A stretch of 64,000 bases of DNA from an uncultured Desulfobacteraceae bacterium (GCA_964611035.1 CAZSWT010000011.1:1006-65005), one strand, 5' to 3'. Positions 40,351 through 61,178 are shown, counted from the first letter of the stretch. The notes: generated from the sequence alone by a model not told the origin. Program-made: numbers and translations.

Positions 40351-40533
40351 ATTCCCCTGCTATGTTCGTGATTGGCGGAAGATTTTTGAGCTAACACTAA
40401 TGTAAAAGGGAATTCCCGCTTGCCCTTGTGTGTTTTTTTGATGGTAAAAAAGACCTAACGGGGTAACGGAATGCCCACCTGCGTGAGCTTAGGTTCAAAA
40501 AGAACTGCCGACACGGCATTGCAGCGGGGGAAA
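40351..40533 (+). ncRNA. ssrS: Putative 6S RNA
   Basis: About 183 nt directly downstream of zapA. The 5' end (ttcccctgctatgttcgtgattggcgg) pairs with the 3' end (ctgccgacacggcattgcagcgggggaa), with bulges. An inner stem tttttgagctaa / ttaggttcaaaaa flanks a central region. Boundaries are approximate. Confidence 0.6.
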
Positions 40534-40535
40534 AT

Positions 40536-49428: not shown

Positions 49429-49575
49429 TTGTCAGTCAGCGGCATTGGTCCAGGTATTTAGGATAACCCTTTTAAATGAGTTTCCTGATGTACGATTTAT
49501 TTAAGAGACTATAAGCGAGATTATTTCCAGCAAAGCAGTATTGACATAAGAGAAGTATTGGGAGAATATTACATC

Positions 49576-50427
49576 ATGACTGAAGACCTCTTTACATTTT
49601 ATCAAATGCCCCCACTCCATGATCCTGTACTTATTGTTGGGTTTGGAGACTGGTCCAATGCTGGCAATGTTGCCCTAAAGTCGATAGACTACATTATTGA
49701 AAAAAAGAAGGCTACATTAATAGCTGAGATAGATCCGGACTATTTTTACCAGTTTACTCAAAACAGACCAGTAGTTACTATCAAGAAAGGAAGGCTTCAT
49801 GGTCTGGTTTTAAAAAAGATATCTTTTTATTTTTGGCCTAACAAGGAAGGAAAAAATGACCTTATTCTCTTAAAGGCTCAAGAGCCAGACTATAGATGGT
49901 CTATGTTTATTCAGGTCCTGTTTCATTTATGCAAACAATGGGGTGTTTCTCTTATCGTCAGCCTTGGGGGGATGTATGATGATGTCCTTCATACTGAGGC
50001 CATAGTCTCTGGGGTGTATCCCTTTGGGGATTGGAAAGATGTTTTTATCAAAAAAGATATTCCTCTGATTGAATATGAGGGTCCCTCCGGGATACATGCC
50101 CTTATTATGCAGAAGGCAGAAAAAGAAAGCTACCCATTTATTGGGCTTTGGGGCCGTTCACCATTATACTTGAGGGGTACAAATTTTAAGGTAGTAATCA
50201 GGATTGTTAATCTTTTGGCCTCTTTCTTTGCCTTTTATATTGATACAGATGAACTTGAGAGTTCTTTAAAGGAATTTGAGAATCAAATTGAGGAAATCTT
50301 GGAAAATAATTTAGAATTACAGGAATATATAGAGAAGATTAAAAAAATCAGGAGCGGAGAACTGAAAAAAAAAGATACCCCAAAGATTGTAAACATAAAA
50401 GATTTTATGAGGCACAGGGATTCATAA
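49576..50427 (+). CDS. PAC2 (proteasome assembly chaperone 2-like) family protein
   Basis: N-terminus LHDPVLIVGFGDWSNAGNVA plus a C-terminal coiled tail. The ATG at 49576 is preferred to the TTG at 49558. Confidence 0.65.
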   Translation: MTEDLFTFYQMPPLHDPVLIVGFGDWSNAGNVALKSIDYIIEKKKATLIAEIDPDYFYQFTQNRPVVTIKKGRLHGLVLKKISFYFWPNKEGKNDLILLKAQEPDYRWSMFIQVLFHLCKQWGVSLIVSLGGMYDDVLHTEAIVSGVYPFGDWKDVFIKKDIPLIEYEGPSGIHALIMQKAEKESYPFIGLWGRSPLYLRGTNFKVVIRIVNLLASFFAFYIDTDELESSLKEFENQIEEILENNLELQEYIEKIKKIRSGELKKKDTPKIVNIKDFMRHRDS

Positions 50428-52729: not shown

Positions 52730-52930
52730 CTAATGTTAGCATACTGTTTCGGTAATTTTCCAATTTTTATATTCATAGGAAAATCCTTGACTTTTTATAA
52801 TTTAAGAGTATAGAGATACAATACAGATGTAGCAATAATGATTTTCTCAACAATTTACTAAGGAGAGGAGGTGGGGAATAATCAATCCTTTAAAGGTAAA
52901 AATAACCTTTAGCAAAGGGAGGACTAAGGT

Positions 52931-54595
52931 ATGAATTCATTATGGGTATTATTATGGTGGGTAATAATTGTTGTTGTAGGCTACTGGGTATATGCCAGGT
53001 GGGCTGCTAAGAAAGTTTTTGAGGTTGATGCAGGAAGAGCAACACCTGCCAAGATGTACATGGATGGTGTTGACTTTATGCCTGCAAACAAAAATGTTCT
53101 CTTTGGGTTTCAGCTTAACTCCATAGCAGGGGCTGCACCTATCATAGGCCCTATAGTGGCCCTTCAATGGGGTTGGATGCCAGCACTCCTGTGGTTAGGG
53201 CTTGGCGTCTTCTTTATAGGGTGGCTCCATGACTTCTCGAGCGCTATGGTATCTATAAGAAGTGATGGCGATACCTTCGGGGCCCTGGGATATAAATTGA
53301 TATCACCCAGGGCAAGAAAGATACTTCTTACCTTCATCTACTTTTACCTGCTTCTTATAGCAACTGCCTTTGGGCATGTAATTACAAAGGGTGTAAGCGG
53401 AAATGCAGCACTCCCATTTCCCTTGCTGGTGGTTATTGCAGTGGCATTTCTGGTTGGGCATATGATCTATAAGGCAAAGGTAAACATAATTACAACTACC
53501 ATCATTGCAATTGTAGCGATCTTTGTTGCAATCTGGTTAGGCACGGTTTGGAACATTAAGGTTTCCTATACCACCGTCCTTATATGTGTGTTGATATTTG
53601 GTTATTTTAGCTCGATTCTACCAGTATGGCGTTTCATTCAGCCCTATAACTACTCCTCAGTATACGTGGTATACTTCGGGATCATAGCAGGGATTATAGG
53701 AATAATTATAGGCCATAAACCCATGACCCTGCCAGCTTTTACAAGCTGGGGTATCGGCATGGGTCCACTCTGGCCTCTTCTTTTTCTTACCATTGCCTGC
53801 GGCTCTATCTCCGGGTGGCACAGTCTGGTATCCAGTACTGCCACATCAAGACAGCTTGAAAACGAGCTGGACGTTAGACCAGTAACAGCAGGGGCAATGT
53901 TTGCGGAGTTTACCATAGCAATTATTGCGGTTATCGTATGTGCCACCGCATTTGCCGATAAGGCGGCTTACATAGCAAAGGTCAGCAATCCTGTAGGGAT
54001 CTTTGTTGGTGGCCTTGGAGGGGCAATCACCTCCCTTGGGCTTCCATTATCTTATGCCAAGGCCCTGGCAGGTATGATGATTATTATACTTGCCCTTACT
54101 ATTATAAACCTCGTGTTCCGCTTTATGAAGGTCGCAACCGCTGAGCTTCTGGGTGACACATGGGGAGTTGCAAAGAACCCTCATGTAGCAACCATTGTGG
54201 CACTTATTATCACCTTTGTACTGGTAAAAACAGGAACCTGGCTTTATGTATGGGTACTTTTTGGCGGTGCCAATCAATTGATGGCATCCTTTGCACTTCT
54301 GCTGGTAACTCTCTTTTTGGTCCAGAAGGCCAAAAATTATAAGATTGCCATCTACCCGATGTTTTTCATGTATGCTACCACCGTTTGCGGCCTGTTTTAT
54401 GTGGCCTTTTTCAAGTTGATACCGGCTGGATTTGCAGGCAAAAAGGTATTCGGAAATTTCTTTGCTGCGGCAGTAGCCATTCTGCTTATAATCCTTGCCA
54501 TTATTCTTGCATATGATGGCTGGAAGGCATTCAAGAAGTATAGATCAGGTGCGGCTGCAGAGACCCCGGCTGAGGCAGAAAAGGCACCAGCATAA
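52931..54595 (+). CDS. cstA: Carbon starvation protein A (CstA) family transporter, short form
   Basis: 554 aa polytopic protein. The N-terminal region parallels E. coli CstA (VLFGFQLNSIAGAAPIIGPIVA..., IRSDGDTFG). GGGAGG RBS. Confidence 0.88.
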   Translation: MNSLWVLLWWVIIVVVGYWVYARWAAKKVFEVDAGRATPAKMYMDGVDFMPANKNVLFGFQLNSIAGAAPIIGPIVALQWGWMPALLWLGLGVFFIGWLHDFSSAMVSIRSDGDTFGALGYKLISPRARKILLTFIYFYLLLIATAFGHVITKGVSGNAALPFPLLVVIAVAFLVGHMIYKAKVNIITTTIIAIVAIFVAIWLGTVWNIKVSYTTVLICVLIFGYFSSILPVWRFIQPYNYSSVYVVYFGIIAGIIGIIIGHKPMTLPAFTSWGIGMGPLWPLLFLTIACGSISGWHSLVSSTATSRQLENELDVRPVTAGAMFAEFTIAIIAVIVCATAFADKAAYIAKVSNPVGIFVGGLGGAITSLGLPLSYAKALAGMMIIILALTIINLVFRFMKVATAELLGDTWGVAKNPHVATIVALIITFVLVKTGTWLYVWVLFGGANQLMASFALLLVTLFLVQKAKNYKIAIYPMFFMYATTVCGLFYVAFFKLIPAGFAGKKVFGNFFAAAVAILLIILAIILAYDGWKAFKKYRSGAAAETPAEAEKAPA

Positions 54596-54650
54596 GATTG
54601 GGTTTTAGAAAACCTTTAAAGAAGGGGATATAGTACCTGGGAGAGACTTT

Positions 54651-54950
54651 GTGATCCTGGGGATGTATTCCCTTACTTTTATTTTTCAAAAAGTGAAATA
54701 CCCCTGGATACAGACTATAAAGGATTACCTAAAAGGCTTCTTTCTTTACGATTTGATAGGAGGGGTATACAAAGAAAGACGTTGTCTGGACGATCTGTTT
54801 ATGGTAAACATATGTGGTAAGATAATTGGGTTCCCTGGTCTTTTTAACTATTATCATTTGAGACTTTTCCCTTACTATGTTAAAAGACTTGGGCCATGGA
54901 AGAGAAGGGTTTTAAGGGAAAGGGATTTCTTTGACCATATAAGGGATTAA
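54651..54950 (+). CDS. Small conserved hypothetical protein, paralogue 1
   Basis: 99 aa. The C-terminal half aligns with the next ORF (LRLFPYYVKRLGPWKRRVLRERDFFDHI). GTG start after GGGAGA; the alternative ATG is at 54663. Confidence 0.55.
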   Translation: MILGMYSLTFIFQKVKYPWIQTIKDYLKGFFLYDLIGGVYKERRCLDDLFMVNICGKIIGFPGLFNYYHLRLFPYYVKRLGPWKRRVLRERDFFDHIRD

Positions 54951-54978
54951 TTTAAAAAATTTAAAAGAGATTGTAGCC

Positions 54979-55266
54979 ATGGAAGAGAAAAAGAAAGAGA
55001 AGAAAAGGAAAAAATCAGGAGGCGTTATAGGTTTTGTAAGAGATTTTACTTATGGCATGGCAACACATGGAATGGCACGTCATGCACTTAAACAACGCTC
55101 CAGCATGGAGCATCTTTTTATCCTTATAACCATGGGCGATATGCTTGGCATTCCCATACTCCCTCCTTATTATTCACTACGTTTGCTCCCCTATGTTGTG
55201 CCTCAGATCACCACATGGAAGCGCAGGATGTTGAGGGAAAAGGATTTTATGGATAGCATGTATTAG
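54979..55266 (+). CDS. Small conserved hypothetical protein, paralogue 2
   Basis: 95 aa. Lys-rich N-terminus. C-terminus LRLLPYVVPQITTWKRRMLREKDFMDSM is paralogous to the preceding ORF. Confidence 0.6.
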   Translation: MEEKKKEKKRKKSGGVIGFVRDFTYGMATHGMARHALKQRSSMEHLFILITMGDMLGIPILPPYYSLRLLPYVVPQITTWKRRMLREKDFMDSMY

Positions 55267-55353
55267 TGTTTGTTGAGTTCATTGAGTTCATTGGGTTTTA
55301 ACACAACAAACCCAAAAAACCCGAGAAACCCAATAAACTATAAAGGAGGAATT

Positions 55354-56334
55354 ATGTCTCTTGCTGATTTTTTTATACAGTATCCCAACAGAAGATACCT
55401 TATGTACGGAGGAAAGGGAGGGCTTGGAAAGACAACCTTTTCAGCGGCAACGGCCTATTATCTTGCAAAGAAAGGGAAAAGGGTGCTCGTTTTCTCTGTT
55501 GATCCCCAGGCATCGCTCAGTGATATCTTTGAGCGCGACATCTTTGGTAAAGGAAACATTGAGATAATGGAAAATCTCTTTGCCTGTGAGGTCGATGCTG
55601 ACAAGAGGATTCAGGACTATCAGGAAGAGATACGGCAAAAGATTATCTCGATGTATGGTATGAAAAAGATCCCTGAGGAAATAGAGAGTTATATAAAGGC
55701 CTCATCGGCTGAACCAGCTATGGAGGAAAGCGCCATCTTTGATGCAGTGGTTGACATTGTGGTTAAAGGAAATTTTGACTACTACATTTATGACCTTGTC
55801 CCCCTTGGCCATGCCCTTTATTATTTGAGCATGGCGTCTGTCTATGATGCATGGCTGGAGAAGATAACAAGCCTGAGGGAACAGATGAAGGAATATGACA
55901 AGGCTATTGCCACCATGAAGCGGGAAGATACGGAGCAAGACGACATATATAACGAGTTGATGTATATAAAGGATCGGATAGGAAGTTCCTCCAAGATCAT
56001 GACAGACACTGAAAAGACTGCCTTTTTCTTTGTGCTTACCCCAGAGGAGATGACCATAGTGGATACTGAAAAGGCGGCACAACTTTTTGCTAAGTATAAT
56101 GTACCTCTTTCAGGATATATAGTAAATCGTGTAATTAACAGGGAATTGTTAAAAGATAACATACCAACCTATCTAAGAAATAGGATCGGGATGCAGGCCG
56201 GTGCCCTTGAGATGATAGACCAGACATTTGGCTCTTCTGTGCTTTCATCTGTTCCGGAATTTGATTCCGAGATAAAAGGGCTTGATGTAATTAGAAACCT
56301 TGCAGAAGTGATGTTTGAGGAGAAATTGCCATGA
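55354..56334 (+). CDS. ArsA/Get3-family P-loop ATPase, subunit 1
   Basis: GGKGGLGKTT deviant Walker A, SVDPQASLSD, and a DLVPLGH switch II variant. ATG at 55354 after AAAGGAGGA. Confidence 0.85.
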   Translation: MSLADFFIQYPNRRYLMYGGKGGLGKTTFSAATAYYLAKKGKRVLVFSVDPQASLSDIFERDIFGKGNIEIMENLFACEVDADKRIQDYQEEIRQKIISMYGMKKIPEEIESYIKASSAEPAMEESAIFDAVVDIVVKGNFDYYIYDLVPLGHALYYLSMASVYDAWLEKITSLREQMKEYDKAIATMKREDTEQDDIYNELMYIKDRIGSSSKIMTDTEKTAFFFVLTPEEMTIVDTEKAAQLFAKYNVPLSGYIVNRVINRELLKDNIPTYLRNRIGMQAGALEMIDQTFGSSVLSSVPEFDSEIKGLDVIRNLAEVMFEEKLP

Positions 56335-57317
56335 AAACCACAGTGGAAGATTTTATTAAGAGTCATCCCCAGATGAAATATACCTACTTTGGTGGAAAAG
56401 GGGGAGTTGGAAAGACGGTTGTTGCCGCGGCTGTGGCACTGTGGATGGCGCAACAGGGTAAAAAAACACTCCTGGCCTCTACAAATCCTGTGCATAGCCT
56501 GTCAAACCTTTTTAAACAGGACGTCTTTGGAAAACCCGTTTTGATACCGGGAACAAATAATCTTTTTGTCCAGGAGATAGATACAAAAGACACCATAGAA
56601 AGATCAAAGAATGAGATACGGGAGAAGATAAGCTGGTTTCTTAAGTTTGCTGACATTCCTACAAAGACCGATGACTTTATAGAGTCTGCCACCATGAATC
56701 CGGCCTTTGAAGAGTCGGCCATGTTTGAGAACATGATAAATATAATGCTCGAAGATGCCTTTGAGTTTTACGTTTTTGATACTGCTCCCACAGCAAACGC
56801 CAGAAGGCTTTTAGGCATGTCAAAGGTCTATACACTCTGGGTGAACAAGATGTACAAAAGCCGGGAGGAAGCTGCAGCTATGAGGCTGAGTCTTTCCTTC
56901 CGAAAAAAGAAGGTAGCAGAGGAAGAGGACCCATTAATGGAGTATCTCAGCACCTTTAGGGATAGGATAGAACATATGAGGGTTCTTTTAACTGATGAGG
57001 AAAAGAGTGCCTTTTTCTTTGTAACCCTTCTTGAATCTCTTCCCATTGCAGTAATTCGACGCTTCATTGGCTGGTTCAAGGACTTTGGAATTCCAATAGG
57101 CGGTGTCATTATAAACGAGGCTATCGATAAATCAGAAGTAGGTAAAGATTCTGCTCAATTCATCATTAATCGGGTCAAAATGCAGGACAAATATCGGGAA
57201 GAAGTGTATAAATCCTTTGAAAATGTCTGCGGTGAGATCCCTCTTTTTGATAACGAGGTTAGAGGCGTGGATATGGTAAAAAAGCTAACTCAGGCCTTAT
57301 TTTCTTCCCCTGATTAG
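56331..57317 (+). CDS. ArsA/Get3-family P-loop ATPase, subunit 2
   Basis: GGKGGVGKTV, STNPVHSLSN, and a DTAPTAN switch II variant. 4-nt ATGA overlap with subunit 1. Confidence 0.85.
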   Translation: MKTTVEDFIKSHPQMKYTYFGGKGGVGKTVVAAAVALWMAQQGKKTLLASTNPVHSLSNLFKQDVFGKPVLIPGTNNLFVQEIDTKDTIERSKNEIREKISWFLKFADIPTKTDDFIESATMNPAFEESAMFENMINIMLEDAFEFYVFDTAPTANARRLLGMSKVYTLWVNKMYKSREEAAAMRLSLSFRKKKVAEEEDPLMEYLSTFRDRIEHMRVLLTDEEKSAFFFVTLLESLPIAVIRRFIGWFKDFGIPIGGVIINEAIDKSEVGKDSAQFIINRVKMQDKYREEVYKSFENVCGEIPLFDNEVRGVDMVKKLTQALFSSPD

Positions 57318-57477: not shown

Positions 57478-57879
57478 TTAGCCTGCATTAACAATTGGCC
57501 GTACATCTGTAATCTTGAATCGAATAGCTGCACGGATCAGATTACTGGCCTGCGTGCCTGCTGCCTTGGCGATATTATGTTTGATCTTGTCGTAAAACTC
57601 GCCGCTGGTTTCCATATCAATCGCTTCTAGATAGACTCTCGCTCCTTTCCAATCCATAACTGTTTCGCCTGGCTCCATGACAATGAAAACCGCCTTAGGG
57701 TTTCTTTGAAGGTTCCGAAAAGTTCGGTTTTCCCTAATCCCCATGACTACGGTGTTTTCATCGATCATCTGGGGTGACCCAAAAACGGCCACATTGACAT
57801 CCCCTAGTTTGTTGGCAGTACTGAGAGTGCCAATCCTGGGTTGTTTGTTGAATAGTGTCATCAACTCCTTTCGGTCCAT
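57478..57879 (-). CDS. Pyridoxamine 5'-phosphate oxidase-like FMN-binding split-barrel protein
   Basis: 133 aa. IGTLSTANKLGDVNVAVFGS...NPKAVFIV pattern. Confidence 0.75.
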   Translation of the reverse strand: MDRKELMTLFNKQPRIGTLSTANKLGDVNVAVFGSPQMIDENTVVMGIRENRTFRNLQRNPKAVFIVMEPGETVMDWKGARVYLEAIDMETSGEFYDKIKHNIAKAAGTQASNLIRAAIRFKITDVRPIVNAG

Positions 57880-58221: not shown

Positions 58222-58599
58222 ATGGATCCAATACTTCTTGAAGTGGTTGCACCCATGCTTTCTACTGTGGAAATGAATTGTCGGGGATGCGGTTTCGTTT
58301 TTGGTTATTTAGGCTTAAAGAGTAAATATCGCAATGCCTGTACTAACGAATACCCTGAAGATTGGAAATGGGCTGTGGGTTACTTGTCAGAATGGATACG
58401 CGAAGTATCCTCTTTATATCAGCACCGGATTCGTATTCGGGTAATTGATGCACAGTCTCCCCTTGGTCTCTGGAAGCAGATACGATATAAGCTCTTTCGA
58501 TTTCCTGCCTTCATCGTCGACAAAAAACGCACATACATAGGATGGGATTTTCAGCAATTAGAGTCCCTTATTGACGAACGCATCCATGAAGCTGTATAG
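58222..58599 (+). CDS. Hypothetical protein, possible thioredoxin-like fold with a CxxC motif
   Basis: 125 aa. CRGC early in the sequence and FPAFIV (cis-Pro-like) later. No confident family assignment. Confidence 0.4.
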   Translation: MDPILLEVVAPMLSTVEMNCRGCGFVFGYLGLKSKYRNACTNEYPEDWKWAVGYLSEWIREVSSLYQHRIRIRVIDAQSPLGLWKQIRYKLFRFPAFIVDKKRTYIGWDFQQLESLIDERIHEAV

Positions 58600-58897: not shown

Positions 58898-59851
58898 GTG
58901 AAAAAGGGCAGGAAGATCGGACTGGCCTTAGGTGGTGGTGGGGCAAGGGGTATAGCCCATATAGGGGTTATGAAGGTTCTGGAAAAAGAGAAGATAACGC
59001 CTGATATTATTGTAGGGACGAGCATAGGCTCAATTGTGGGAGGTGCCTTTGCAAGCGGGATGAAGATTAAAGAAGTGGAGAAGAGAGCCGAGGCTTTTTT
59101 AGAAAGTGATCTATATCAATCATCCGAGCTTAAGGCTATGGGTGATGCAGAAAGTGGAGCCGAACAAAGGCTGAGCAGGCGGATTCAGTCCTATTTTATG
59201 ACCAAGTTTCGATTGGCCCAGGCACTCTATAGGCCGAGCATTTTGCAAATAGATGAAATGCAGGAGTTTGTGAACTTTTTTATACCTGATATACAAATAG
59301 AAGAAACAATAATCCCTTTTAGAGCAGTAGCAACCGATCTAAGGAGCGGTAAATGCGTTGTCCTTAAAAAAGGCTCTTTGCGGCGCTCTATCTTAGCCAG
59401 TTCCGCTGTTCCTGGTGCTTTACCCCCGGTTGAGATTAACGGAAGACAATTGTCTGACGGTGGTATTATTTGTAATGTGCCTGTACGACATCTCTTTGAA
59501 GAAGGTGTCCAAGAAGTAATTGCAATAGTTGTGGATAGGGATATAGCTTTATGCTCGGAGCTTCAAACAGCTGTGGACATATATGTAAGGGCTGGCGAGA
59601 TACAGGGATTTCACCTGGAGAAATACAGCCTCGAAAATGCCGATATTGTTATTAGGCCACAAATAGGCAATATTCATTGGACTGATTTTTCCCGATCCAA
59701 GGAATTGATCTCCCTTGGCGAGGCAGCGGCTATGAACAGTCTTCCTGAAATACAAAGGTTGGCGAAGCGAATCTACAAGCGGGACTTAATGGAAGGGCTA
59801 AAGAGGTCGGCAAAAAAGCTTTTTAGTGTCACCCCATCAAAAAATGGGTAA
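58898..59851 (+). CDS. Patatin-like phospholipase
   Basis: GLALGGGGARG oxyanion motif, GTSIGS nucleophile elbow, and the DGG catalytic Asp motif. GTG start. Confidence 0.9.
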   Translation: MKKGRKIGLALGGGGARGIAHIGVMKVLEKEKITPDIIVGTSIGSIVGGAFASGMKIKEVEKRAEAFLESDLYQSSELKAMGDAESGAEQRLSRRIQSYFMTKFRLAQALYRPSILQIDEMQEFVNFFIPDIQIEETIIPFRAVATDLRSGKCVVLKKGSLRRSILASSAVPGALPPVEINGRQLSDGGIICNVPVRHLFEEGVQEVIAIVVDRDIALCSELQTAVDIYVRAGEIQGFHLEKYSLENADIVIRPQIGNIHWTDFSRSKELISLGEAAAMNSLPEIQRLAKRIYKRDLMEGLKRSAKKLFSVTPSKNG

Positions 59852-61178
59852 TTATGCTGAGATAGATCAGGAGTCCAAGTATATCGTTTGATGTGGTAAT
59901 GAATGGTCCTGCAGCTAATGCCGGGTCAATGTTGAACTTCCTAAGAAGAAAAGGAACAAATGCTCCAAAGGAGCCAGAGAAGAGTATTACTGTGATCAGG
60001 CTCACACCTACCCCTAAACCTAATTTGGGATCAGATAACCAGAAAGCGACTACAAGCCCTAACAATATACCGCATAAAACACCGTTTATCAATGCTACCC
60101 ATAATTCTGTTAATAGCCTTTTGCCAGTATGAACTATGCTTATATCACCTGTTGCCAGTCCCCTGATGACAACAGTGGCTGCCTGGGTGCCGGTGTTCCC
60201 ACCCATTGCCATTATTACTGGTATAAAAAAAGACAGGGCAAGTATTTTTTCAAGAGAGCCATGAAAGTGGTTAATTACGATAGCTGATATAAGCCCTCCA
60301 AAGAGACCCAAAAGTAACCACGGAAGGCGGGCCCTGGATATTTTCAATGCTGATTCTTCAGCAATTTCCTGATCCAAAACACCTGCCATCAGAGAGATAT
60401 CCTCATTTGCCTCTTCTTCAATGACATCAATGATATCATCGTTTGTAATTCTCCCTATCAGTTTGTGCTGAGCAGTAACAACCGGAATGTGGGTAAGGTC
60501 GTATTGTTTAGCGATTCTGGCCACCTCTTCCTGGTCTGTATCAACATCTACGCTCATAACATCGGAATTCATTATATCATTGATCTTTTTATCTTGCGGC
60601 TCAAGGACGAGATCCTTTATAGAAACAACCCCTACCAGTTTGCCAAAATCGTCTATCACCCAAACATAATAGAGGTTTTCGACTTCTTCCCTCTTTTTTC
60701 TAATCGTTTCTACGGCTTCTTGAATGGTAGAGTTGGCATTGACAGAAACAAACTCCAGGGCCATGATGCCGCCAGCGGTATCTGTTTCATAGCCAAGTAG
60801 TTTTTGTAACTCTTCGGATACATCAGGTTGCACCAAACTGATTATTTTTTGAGCCCTTTCCCTTGGAAGATAACTGAAGATATCTGTGGCATCATCTGAA
60901 TTTAGTTCATTTAAGATCTGGGTGATTGTCTGGTCATCAAGTTCATTAGCAATTTTTTCCTGGATTGGGGCCGATATCTCTTTCAAGACCTCGCCAGCCC
61001 TATCAGGTGTAAGAAGCTTAAACACAGCAAGTATTTCATCGCTCTCCAGGTGTTCTACTAAATCAGCAAGATCTGCTGGATGAAGTTCTTCTATTAACCT
61101 TTCCATATCTGAATATGCCTGTTCCTGGATCATATTTCTTATGTTATCAAGGAGGACTTTATAGTCGGTTTGGGTCAT
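59829..61178 (-). CDS. mgtE: Magnesium transporter MgtE
   Basis: 449 aa. N-domain, tandem CBS domains, and a C-terminal TM domain with GNTGTQ and PFITTSNDILGLLIY. Confidence 0.95.
   Translation of the reverse strand: MTQTDYKVLLDNIRNMIQEQAYSDMERLIEELHPADLADLVEHLESDEILAVFKLLTPDRAGEVLKEISAPIQEKIANELDDQTITQILNELNSDDATDIFSYLPRERAQKIISLVQPDVSEELQKLLGYETDTAGGIMALEFVSVNANSTIQEAVETIRKKREEVENLYYVWVIDDFGKLVGVVSIKDLVLEPQDKKINDIMNSDVMSVDVDTDQEEVARIAKQYDLTHIPVVTAQHKLIGRITNDDIIDVIEEEANEDISLMAGVLDQEIAEESALKISRARLPWLLLGLFGGLISAIVINHFHGSLEKILALSFFIPVIMAMGGNTGTQAATVVIRGLATGDISIVHTGKRLLTELWVALINGVLCGILLGLVVAFWLSDPKLGLGVGVSLITVILFSGSFGAFVPFLLRKFNIDPALAAGPFITTSNDILGLLIYLSIITHFLMG

Follow-up and report, generated by a model that had tools for sequence, protein, structure and literature searches.

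The role of prokaryotic Get3/ArsA-fold ATPases outside arsenic resistance is a question on which a locus in an uncultured Desulfobacteraceae bacterium bears directly. Bacterial Get3 homologues of this sort had not been studied according to a 2019 review (PMC6593721). The 64,000-nt stretch analysed here (GCA_964611035.1, CAZSWT010000011.1:1006-65005; hereafter the window) carries, at positions 52931-57317, genes for a CstA-family permease, two small proteins (CstX-A and CstX-B) and two such ATPases (ArsA1 and ArsA2). What kind of system do these genes form, and what could the ATPases be doing beside a secondary carrier? The features concerned are as follows.

52931-54595, + strand: CstA-family permease, compact form (554 aa; Pfam PF02554)
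54651-54950, + strand: CstX-A, divergent DUF7990 paralogue (99 aa from a GTG start; 95 aa from an alternative ATG at 54663)
54979-55266, + strand: CstX-B, core DUF7990 protein (95 aa)
55354-56334, + strand: ArsA1-type Get3/ArsA-fold ATPase (326 aa; predicted catalytically competent subunit)
56331-57317, + strand: ArsA2-type Get3/ArsA-fold ATPase (328 aa; predicted degenerate, non-hydrolytic site)
58222-58599, + strand: predicted thioredoxin-fold protein, facultative sixth component (125 aa; N-terminal CRGC motif)
52772-52882, + strand: candidate promoter region 5' of cstA (consensus scan only, weak; several sigma-70-like hexamer pairs)

The region is an instance of the cstA-cstX-arsA-homologue operon in an uncultured Desulfobacterales-like genome. 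The original prediction knew of no description of such an arrangement, which is wrong, as cstA-cstX-arsA operons were described by Castillo & Saier in 2010 (PMC2963123). Using SEED, these authors listed 26 bacteria and archaea whose cstA has a single-domain ArsA homologue (about 330 aa) in the same cluster; 24 of the 26 also have a gene of about 90 aa, which was named cstX, and some archaea a further one, named cstY. They reported that Symbiobacterium thermophilum and Pyrobaculum arsenaticum (the latter with two CstX paralogues) have the ATPases as adjacent pairs and that the trees of the components are congruent, scored CstX as having one transmembrane segment (TMS), and found cstA and ars genes never in one operon (PMC2963123). 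In the model that they proposed, the ATPase energises CstA and CstX serves as coupling subunit; the idea in the original prediction that the ATPase pair energises the permease repeats this published hypothesis, which comes from a separate data set and supports the reading that we favour below. No experimental follow-up of the proposal was found in the searchable literature.

In the S. thermophilum genome (L029) the gene order is CstA-DUF7990-ArsA1-ArsA2, and the two ATPases are 34% identical. Since the gene at the cstX position there is a DUF7990 gene, CstX can, by position, be equated with DUF7990. The layout of the window matches the 'cluster 15' type of Castillo & Saier (Sth1/Sth2; Par1/Par2), in which CstA, a CstX of about 90 aa and two adjacent ATPases of about 330 aa follow one another in the same order; the cluster 15 ATPases are 25-31% identical and, as in the window, ars genes are absent. 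There is no difference in kind between those operons and the window, which adds no new kind of system. Beyond the 2010 paper, the new points are a degenerate switch I in ArsA2, a thioredoxin-fold gene with its fusions, a poorly transmembrane-like CstX, the occurrence of CstX without an adjacent cstA, and a distribution over at least 582 species.

The operon is made up of an obligate ATPase pair, one or two small basic helical CstX proteins and a CstA secondary carrier. As to how these work together, we tentatively favour a refinement of the published coupling model, in which an asymmetric Get3-like heterodimer would bind the basic CstX and so be linked to the cytoplasmic face of CstA, whose transport would be ATP-driven or ATP-gated. 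ArsA1 and ArsA2 would, judging from their sequences, assemble into an asymmetric heterodimer in which ArsA1 is hydrolytic and ArsA2 binds ATP at a degenerate site. The acidic dimer would then bind the basic CstX through the invariant hydrophobic Pro/Gly-rich core and the C-terminal WKRRxLRE helix of the latter. CstX would also touch the cytoplasmic face of CstA, and the nucleotide state of the ATPases would drive or gate transport, in parallel with ArsA turning ArsB from a carrier into a pump. In some lineages the thioredoxin-fold protein, either free or fused to the first CstX, might speculatively add a further input, possibly a redox one.

The organization of the genes is compatible with such joint action. 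As the original prediction stated, five co-directional genes are separated by gaps of 55, 28 and 87 nt and then by a 4-nt ATGA overlap between ArsA1 and ArsA2, and an open reading frame (ORF) check of the + strand reproduced the genes, their coordinates, the gaps and the overlap. When the module was scanned for promoters and terminators, promoter-like sites were found solely 5' of cstA, where the candidate promoter sits in a 200-nt gap after a divergent DUF2784 gene; the best sigma-70-like match (TTCATA-18-TATAAT at 52772-52801), taken from a consensus scan, is weak evidence for it. The same scan found no terminator-like hairpin in any of the three intergenic gaps, which supports the favoured reading. 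This pattern is consistent with one transcription unit for the module but is not proof of it. The ArsA1 start at ATG 55354 is preceded by a strong AAGGAGG ribosome-binding site and, with this Shine-Dalgarno sequence, is more likely the true start than TTG 55270. The ArsA1 frame is open upstream to TTG 55270, in the same frame as CstX-B and one codon past the CstX-B stop, and a 353-aa version of ArsA1 is used by one metagenome gene call (L003).

Is the arrangement conserved elsewhere? One genome per species was scanned, at least 582 species were found to carry a DUF7990 relative, and locus counts were taken from the best 80 loci, in which all stop-to-stop ORFs were searched with the five window proteins. 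These 80 loci fall into about nine phyla (Desulfobacterota, Bacillota, Chloroflexota, Actinomycetota, Nitrospirota, Methylomirabilota, Spirochaetota, and Alpha- and Gammaproteobacteria). Directly 3' of DUF7990, ArsA1-type and ArsA2-type genes follow in that order in 68 of the 72 loci whose sequence extends far enough; the other four are ORF-overlap or frameshift artefacts. In 58 of 65 loci a same-strand CstA gene immediately precedes DUF7990 (about 94% with artefacts allowed); three of the seven misses are artefacts or an inverted cstA, and four are true. Both counts support the favoured reading. Two contigs from Joint Genome Institute metagenomes with an identical protein (L001 and L002) reproduce the arrangement of the window, and the order CstA-DUF7990(x1-2)-ArsA-ArsA recurs in a Bacillota metagenome-assembled genome and in a third lineage. 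The neighbourhood check suggested with the original prediction has thus been carried out, and the small-protein family co-occurs with the ArsA pair and CstA across phyla; as the gene order recurs in 80 of 80 loci, with contig ends and artefacts of assembly set aside, the objection that the five genes might be syntenic in no other genome clearly fails. Pairwise comparison of the four families' distance matrices gives r = 0.88-0.95, which also speaks for coupling although much of it is shared phylogeny, and partial correlations of the matrices do not discriminate between CstX tracking the ATPases and CstX tracking CstA. Taken as a whole, the comparison supports the five genes being a conserved functional, co-inherited unit and not a chance adjacency.

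The two ATPases share 33% identity (E = 1e-59). Their description in the original prediction as two ArsA/Get3-type proteins with GGKGGxGKT motifs is borne out by PF02374 (ArsA_ATPase; 232 bits, 1.6e-68 for ArsA1 and 221 bits, 2.7e-65 for ArsA2), by TIGR00345 (226 and 213 bits, both above the cut-off of 135) and by Walker A motifs of the deviant type (GGKGGLGKT and GGKGGVGKT). For both, the best match among solved structures is M. jannaschii Get3 (MjGet3; 3ug6, E = 7e-60 for ArsA1 and 4e-48 for ArsA2), and the archaeal Get3 homologue 3zq6 is matched at E = 3e-53 and 5e-48; these archaeal structures outrank algal ArsA1, E. coli ArsA and eukaryotic Get3/TRC40. For a comparison of motifs, 76 ArsA1-type and 72 ArsA2-type orthologues from the surveyed loci were aligned. 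The ArsA1 type conserves GGKGGLGKTT, a switch I of the form FSVDPQASL, in which the Asp is kept, and the switch II YDLVPLGH. The ArsA2 type carries switch I STNPVHSL and FDTAPTANARRL, with DTAPTANARRL in place of DTAPTGHT, and its switch-I Asn and this latter change are each at least 90% conserved. In alignment with MjGet3, the Asn falls on the catalytic Asp of STDPAHSL and ANA falls on GHT. The switch-I Asp (D57 in yeast) positions the attacking water (PMC10248533). Because this Asp is kept in ArsA1 and replaced by a conserved Asn in ArsA2, we infer a heterodimer with one hydrolytic and one degenerate site, which would be comparable to the non-equivalent halves of ArsA.

The small proteins were originally described as two paralogues of about 95 aa without a recognisable family. 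The paralogy holds (37% identity over 75 aa, E = 9e-20); the second half of the description does not, as both window proteins are labelled PF25952 (DUF7990) in precomputed annotation, and all 4953 homologues retrieved with CstX-B bear the same label. A DUF7990 profile run against 1.84 billion cluster representatives recovered 457 clusters at 50% identity, and found no match among PDB sequences. The alignment reveals a constrained core, GDxLGxPxLPPYYSLRLLPY..P....WKRRxLRE.D. CstX-B, which is always the gene adjoining ArsA1 in the 80-locus set and is devoid of Cys, is the most conserved part of the module, with a median identity to the window of 72% over 44 distant loci (69% for ArsA1 and 64% for ArsA2). 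The CstX proteins carry net charges of +8 and +9 (+9 for CstX-B), against -14 for ArsA1. Both the conservation and the opposite charges support the favoured reading.

The 2010 label of one TMS does not fit these proteins well. The sole hydrophobic stretch of CstX lies within about 20-50 residues of the C-terminus and carries invariant Gly, Asp, Pro and Arg; over 19 residues the Kyte-Doolittle mean peaks at 1.2-1.5, and on the Hessa scale the best 19-mers score +7.2 and +7.5 kcal/mol, compared with -2.6 to -4.8 for the helices of CstA. The C-terminal 20 residues or so are highly charged (KRR..RE.D), and CstX lacks the single C-terminal hydrophobic transmembrane helix with a short luminal tail by which tail-anchored proteins are recognised. 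Because of the Hessa values of about +7 kcal/mol, the invariant Gly/Asp/Pro/Arg and the highly charged tail, CstX is not transmembrane-like; as far as sequence can tell, it contains no canonical transmembrane or tail-anchor segment, contrary to the earlier label, and is more likely a peripheral or groove-bound helical hairpin.

The two CstX proteins of the window score 34 and 38 bits (E = 1e-8 and 1e-9) against the NCBIfam model NF041419, cory-CC-star, below its cut-off of 80 bits. We take the name of that family to refer to a Cys-Cys-stop ending, and the window proteins, which end in ...HIRD and ...DSMY, have no C-terminal Cys-Cys; they would be distant relatives of the cory-CC-star family at best. 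YbdD, the small protein encoded beside cstA in E. coli, ends in RCC. Several of the small-protein families found with CstA may be remote relatives or analogues.

The number of CstX copies varies, with two DUF7990 genes in 43 of the 80 loci and one in the other 37. The B-type copy adjoining ArsA1 clusters with the single copies and the first copy is the divergent one; 17 of the 43 first-position copies form a separate clade. In L008 (10538-10840, - strand), and likewise in L053, L060 and L080, another DUF7990 gene sits just 3' of ArsA2 on the opposite strand. As these lineages have a single upstream copy, two-copy loci may be more numerous than the tandem count indicates. A His-rich C-terminal extension (..EHDYHLHG[LV]) is conserved in P0140, P0144, P0146, P0155, P0207, P0229, P0001 and P0178 and is absent from both window copies; it is possibly a metal-binding tail, to go by its composition. 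P0001 (163 aa, from an 800-bp contig) contains two DUF7990 domains in one ORF, and is either a natural tandem CstX fusion or an assembly or frameshift artefact.

Besides the five genes noted originally, the 125-aa ORF at 58222-58599 is a facultative sixth component. It matches no Pfam or NCBIfam family, and its family adjoins the module in 24 of the 80 species loci, mostly within 200 nt of the edge: 5' of cstA in Chloroflexota, Actinomycetota and Methylomirabilota, and 3' of ArsA2 in Desulfobacterota. An AlphaFold2 (AF2) model shows thioredoxin-like topology (predicted local distance difference test, pLDDT, 74; predicted template-modelling score, pTM, 0.68). The top Foldseek matches are all thioredoxins, and weak ones (TM-score 0.52-0.63, E 0.014 or worse), and a profile of the family found no match among PDB sequences. 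The CxxC motif is not invariant, being CRGC in the window and SRGS in some orthologues. Among over-long DUF7990 representatives, P0129, P0176 and P0225 have an N-terminal domain homologous to this ORF fused to DUF7990. The P0225 fusion occupies the position of the first CstX (CstA-[fusion]-DUF7990-ArsA-ArsA) in three independent assemblies, which favours the coupling reading; at L090-L092, the first-CstX position is held by this thioredoxin-like::DUF7990 fusion.

The permease itself matches PF02554 at 381 bits (cut-off 27, E = 1e-113), so that its assignment as a 554-aa CstA-family transporter was correct. It reaches 182 bits against the pyruvate/H+ symporter equivalog NF011590, below the cut-off of 1188 bits, and is 27% identical to E. 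coli CstA end to end, the window protein being shorter through loop deletions. Given the low equivalog score and this identity, the substrate cannot be transferred from E. coli CstA; pyruvate or a peptide-like compound is possible, if the characterised CstA proteins are a guide. No solved-structure relative of CstA was found. The E. coli gene pairs cstA-ybdD and btsT-yjiX resemble the module in that a CstA-family permease is followed by a small conserved protein, and the downstream gene of cstA does encode a DUF466 peptide (ybdD; PF04328), as the original prediction stated. These pairs differ from the module in having no ATPases, and DUF466 has no detectable similarity to DUF7990; the RCC ending of YbdD is not shared by CstX.

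Several observations weigh against coupling of the ATPases to CstA. CstA is the least conserved part of the module, with a median identity to the window of 49% over the 44 distant loci, far below the 64-72% of CstX and the ATPases. The ATPases are closer to Get3 chaperones than to ArsA and possess a segment like the TRC40 insert; together with the weak conservation of CstA, this counts against a simple ArsA-ArsB analogy. Characterised CstA and BtsT proteins are reported to be autonomous H+ symporters (PMC7730263, PMC5847655). Four Chloroflexota loci (L030, L074, L075 and L076) have no cstA within 7 kb, and their flanks share no common substitute transporter; as far as adjacency goes, they contradict the claim made in 2010 that cstX never occurs without cstA. 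The AF2 model of CstX-B alone (12-sequence alignment) is of low confidence and uninformative (pLDDT 56; helix 16-56, PPYY loop, helix 75-94), giving no usable fold. Finally, the only fusion of CstA to CstX, which would speak for coupling, is the fragment P0165, where DUF7990 is linked to the C-terminal end of CstA (Pfam positions 477-560 of 560); it is a single unverified observation untraceable to a contig. The CstA-less loci belong to Thermoflexus and Anaerolineales, and their neighbours vary (a GAF/PAS histidine kinase with glutamate synthase; elsewhere a Na+/H+ exchanger with a c-di-AMP receptor domain).

The resemblance to Get3 suggests a different use of ATP, in which the heterodimer would be a dedicated chaperone, a capture or insertion device that holds the hydrophobic segment of CstX or nascent helices of CstA and hands it over to the membrane, or to CstA while this assembles, ATP being spent on biogenesis and not on transport. 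A Get3-like targeting unit was also the alternative named in the original prediction. The closest solved relatives are indeed archaeal Get3 proteins, which bind tail-anchored proteins (PMC6593721), and the window ATPases share with Get3/TRC40 and with archaeal Get3 (3ug6, 3zq6) the deviant Walker A, switches I and II, the A-loop and the insert region, and the stretch that corresponds to the helix-8/TRC40 insert of MjGet3 aligns with a gap of only 5 residues and contains Met. The sole hydrophobic stretch of CstX is near the C-terminus, and Castillo & Saier counted one TMS in it. However, that stretch bears the invariant Gly, Asp, Pro and Arg and has its high Hessa value, the 20-residue tail is highly charged and so unfavourable for translocation, and CstX is more conserved than the ATPases, which would be unusual for a passive client. 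Compared with MjGet3, both ATPases have a more polar insert region and more polar lid segments. Get3 is a homodimer, whereas the window would encode a diverged heterodimer in which one paralogue lacks the catalytic Asp and the CxxC zinc motif is missing, and CstX, the candidate partner, is not a canonical tail-anchored protein like a Get3 client. Some archaeal and bacterial Get3 homologues also lack the CxxC motif (PMC6593721). A device of this kind would leave the role of CstX and its tight linkage to CstA unexplained, and we regard it as unlikely. For the ATPases of the window, we know of no Get1/Get2-type receptor. A bridge between capture and coupling can also be imagined: the hairpin core of CstX would be captured and released in the groove of the asymmetric heterodimer in an ATP-dependent manner, thereby plugging, unplugging or powering CstA, with redox input from the thioredoxin-fold protein. 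We regard this reading as doubtful.

That the conserved core consists of CstX and the ATPases, and persists without CstA in the four Chloroflexota loci, would suit a cytoplasmic unit for stress protection, acting as a holdase or in metabolic stress and co-regulated with CstA under starvation without acting on it. Mycobacterial BagA/BagB (Rv3679/Rv3680) offer a model, being two adjacent, interacting Get3-like ATPases with no arsenic link; they have been connected with the toxicity of glycerol and of nitric oxide and are not reported to be linked to CstA (PMC10597346). The sub-threshold match of CstX to the actinobacterial cory-CC-star model points the same way. However, the window ATPases score only 49-53 bits against the BagA model NF053622 (cut-off 400) and 28-36 bits against the BagB model NF053621 (cut-off 521), a similarity at the level of the P-loop, and the adjacency of CstA in about 94% of loci, with co-variation at r of about 0.9, is hard to reconcile with a mere bystander; we consider this explanation improbable. 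An assignment as a defence system was rejected, since a PADLOC scan gave P-loop similarity only.

Source annotations call the ATPases 'arsenical pump-driving ATPase', and the PF02374 match would allow a split ArsA driving an arsenite or antimonite pump. The two proteins reach 101 and 95 bits against the ArsA equivalog TIGR04291, far below its cut-off of 650, and both are single-domain proteins, not two-domain ones of about 580 aa. The cysteines of the ArsA metalloid site are well established; each window ATPase has a single Cys, and hence neither the three-Cys metalloid site nor a CxxC zinc motif. Going by the gene table of the identical contig L001, genes for ArsB, Acr3, ArsR, ArsC and ArsD are absent from about 6 kb on each side, in keeping with the finding of Castillo & Saier that no operon contains both cstA and ars genes. 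By the equivalog score, the missing Cys site and the lack of ars neighbours, arsenic resistance is effectively excluded. What the favoured coupling reading shares with ArsA-ArsB is an ATPase of the same fold, arranged as a pseudo-dimer of non-equivalent halves and thought to dock on a secondary carrier, making it an ATP-driven pump. In contrast to the single fused A1-A2 chain of ArsA, the window has two separate polypeptides, a carrier of an unrelated family and a Get3-type insert, and it lacks metalloid-binding cysteines; its CstX adaptor has no counterpart in ArsAB.

The module offers co-encoded candidate partners for Get3-fold ATPases, namely CstX, CstA and the thioredoxin-fold protein. If the ATPases do drive or gate CstA, a family of proton symporters would include ATP-dependent members, which would matter for carbon scavenging in energy-limited anaerobes. 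If CstX is captured in the groove of the heterodimer, a prokaryotic Get3 homologue would for the first time have a defined physiological partner, and a small adaptor would provide a new coupling of ATP to a secondary transporter. Since hundreds of species, including the culturable S. thermophilum, carry the module, the 2010 hypothesis is directly testable, and the details added here sharpen it and make testing easier.

The remaining features of the window are listed below.

57478-57879, - strand: PNPOx-like gene (133 aa; Pfam 26.6 bits, just under the 28.1 cut-off)
40351-40534, + strand: 6S/SsrS RNA gene (full-length Rfam RF00013, 86.5 bits; gathering threshold 46.4)
49558-50427, + strand: PAC2-family protein, proteasome-assembly-chaperone-like (PF09754; 283-289 aa)
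58898-59851, + strand: patatin-like gene, convergent with MgtE
59829-61178, - strand: MgtE gene, convergent with the patatin-like gene

The DUF2784, PNPOx-like, patatin, MgtE, PurA, PAC2 and DegT genes were rejected as parts of the module, as they recur beside it only in near-identical genomes. For the same reason the PNPOx-like gene, which stands convergent between ArsA2 and the thioredoxin-fold gene, has probably been inserted into the module. The 64-kb window is free of tRNA genes. The PAC2-family gene is in a bacterial context, between a DegT-type aminotransferase gene and purA. The patatin-like and MgtE genes overlap by 23 nt at their 3' ends (59829-59851).

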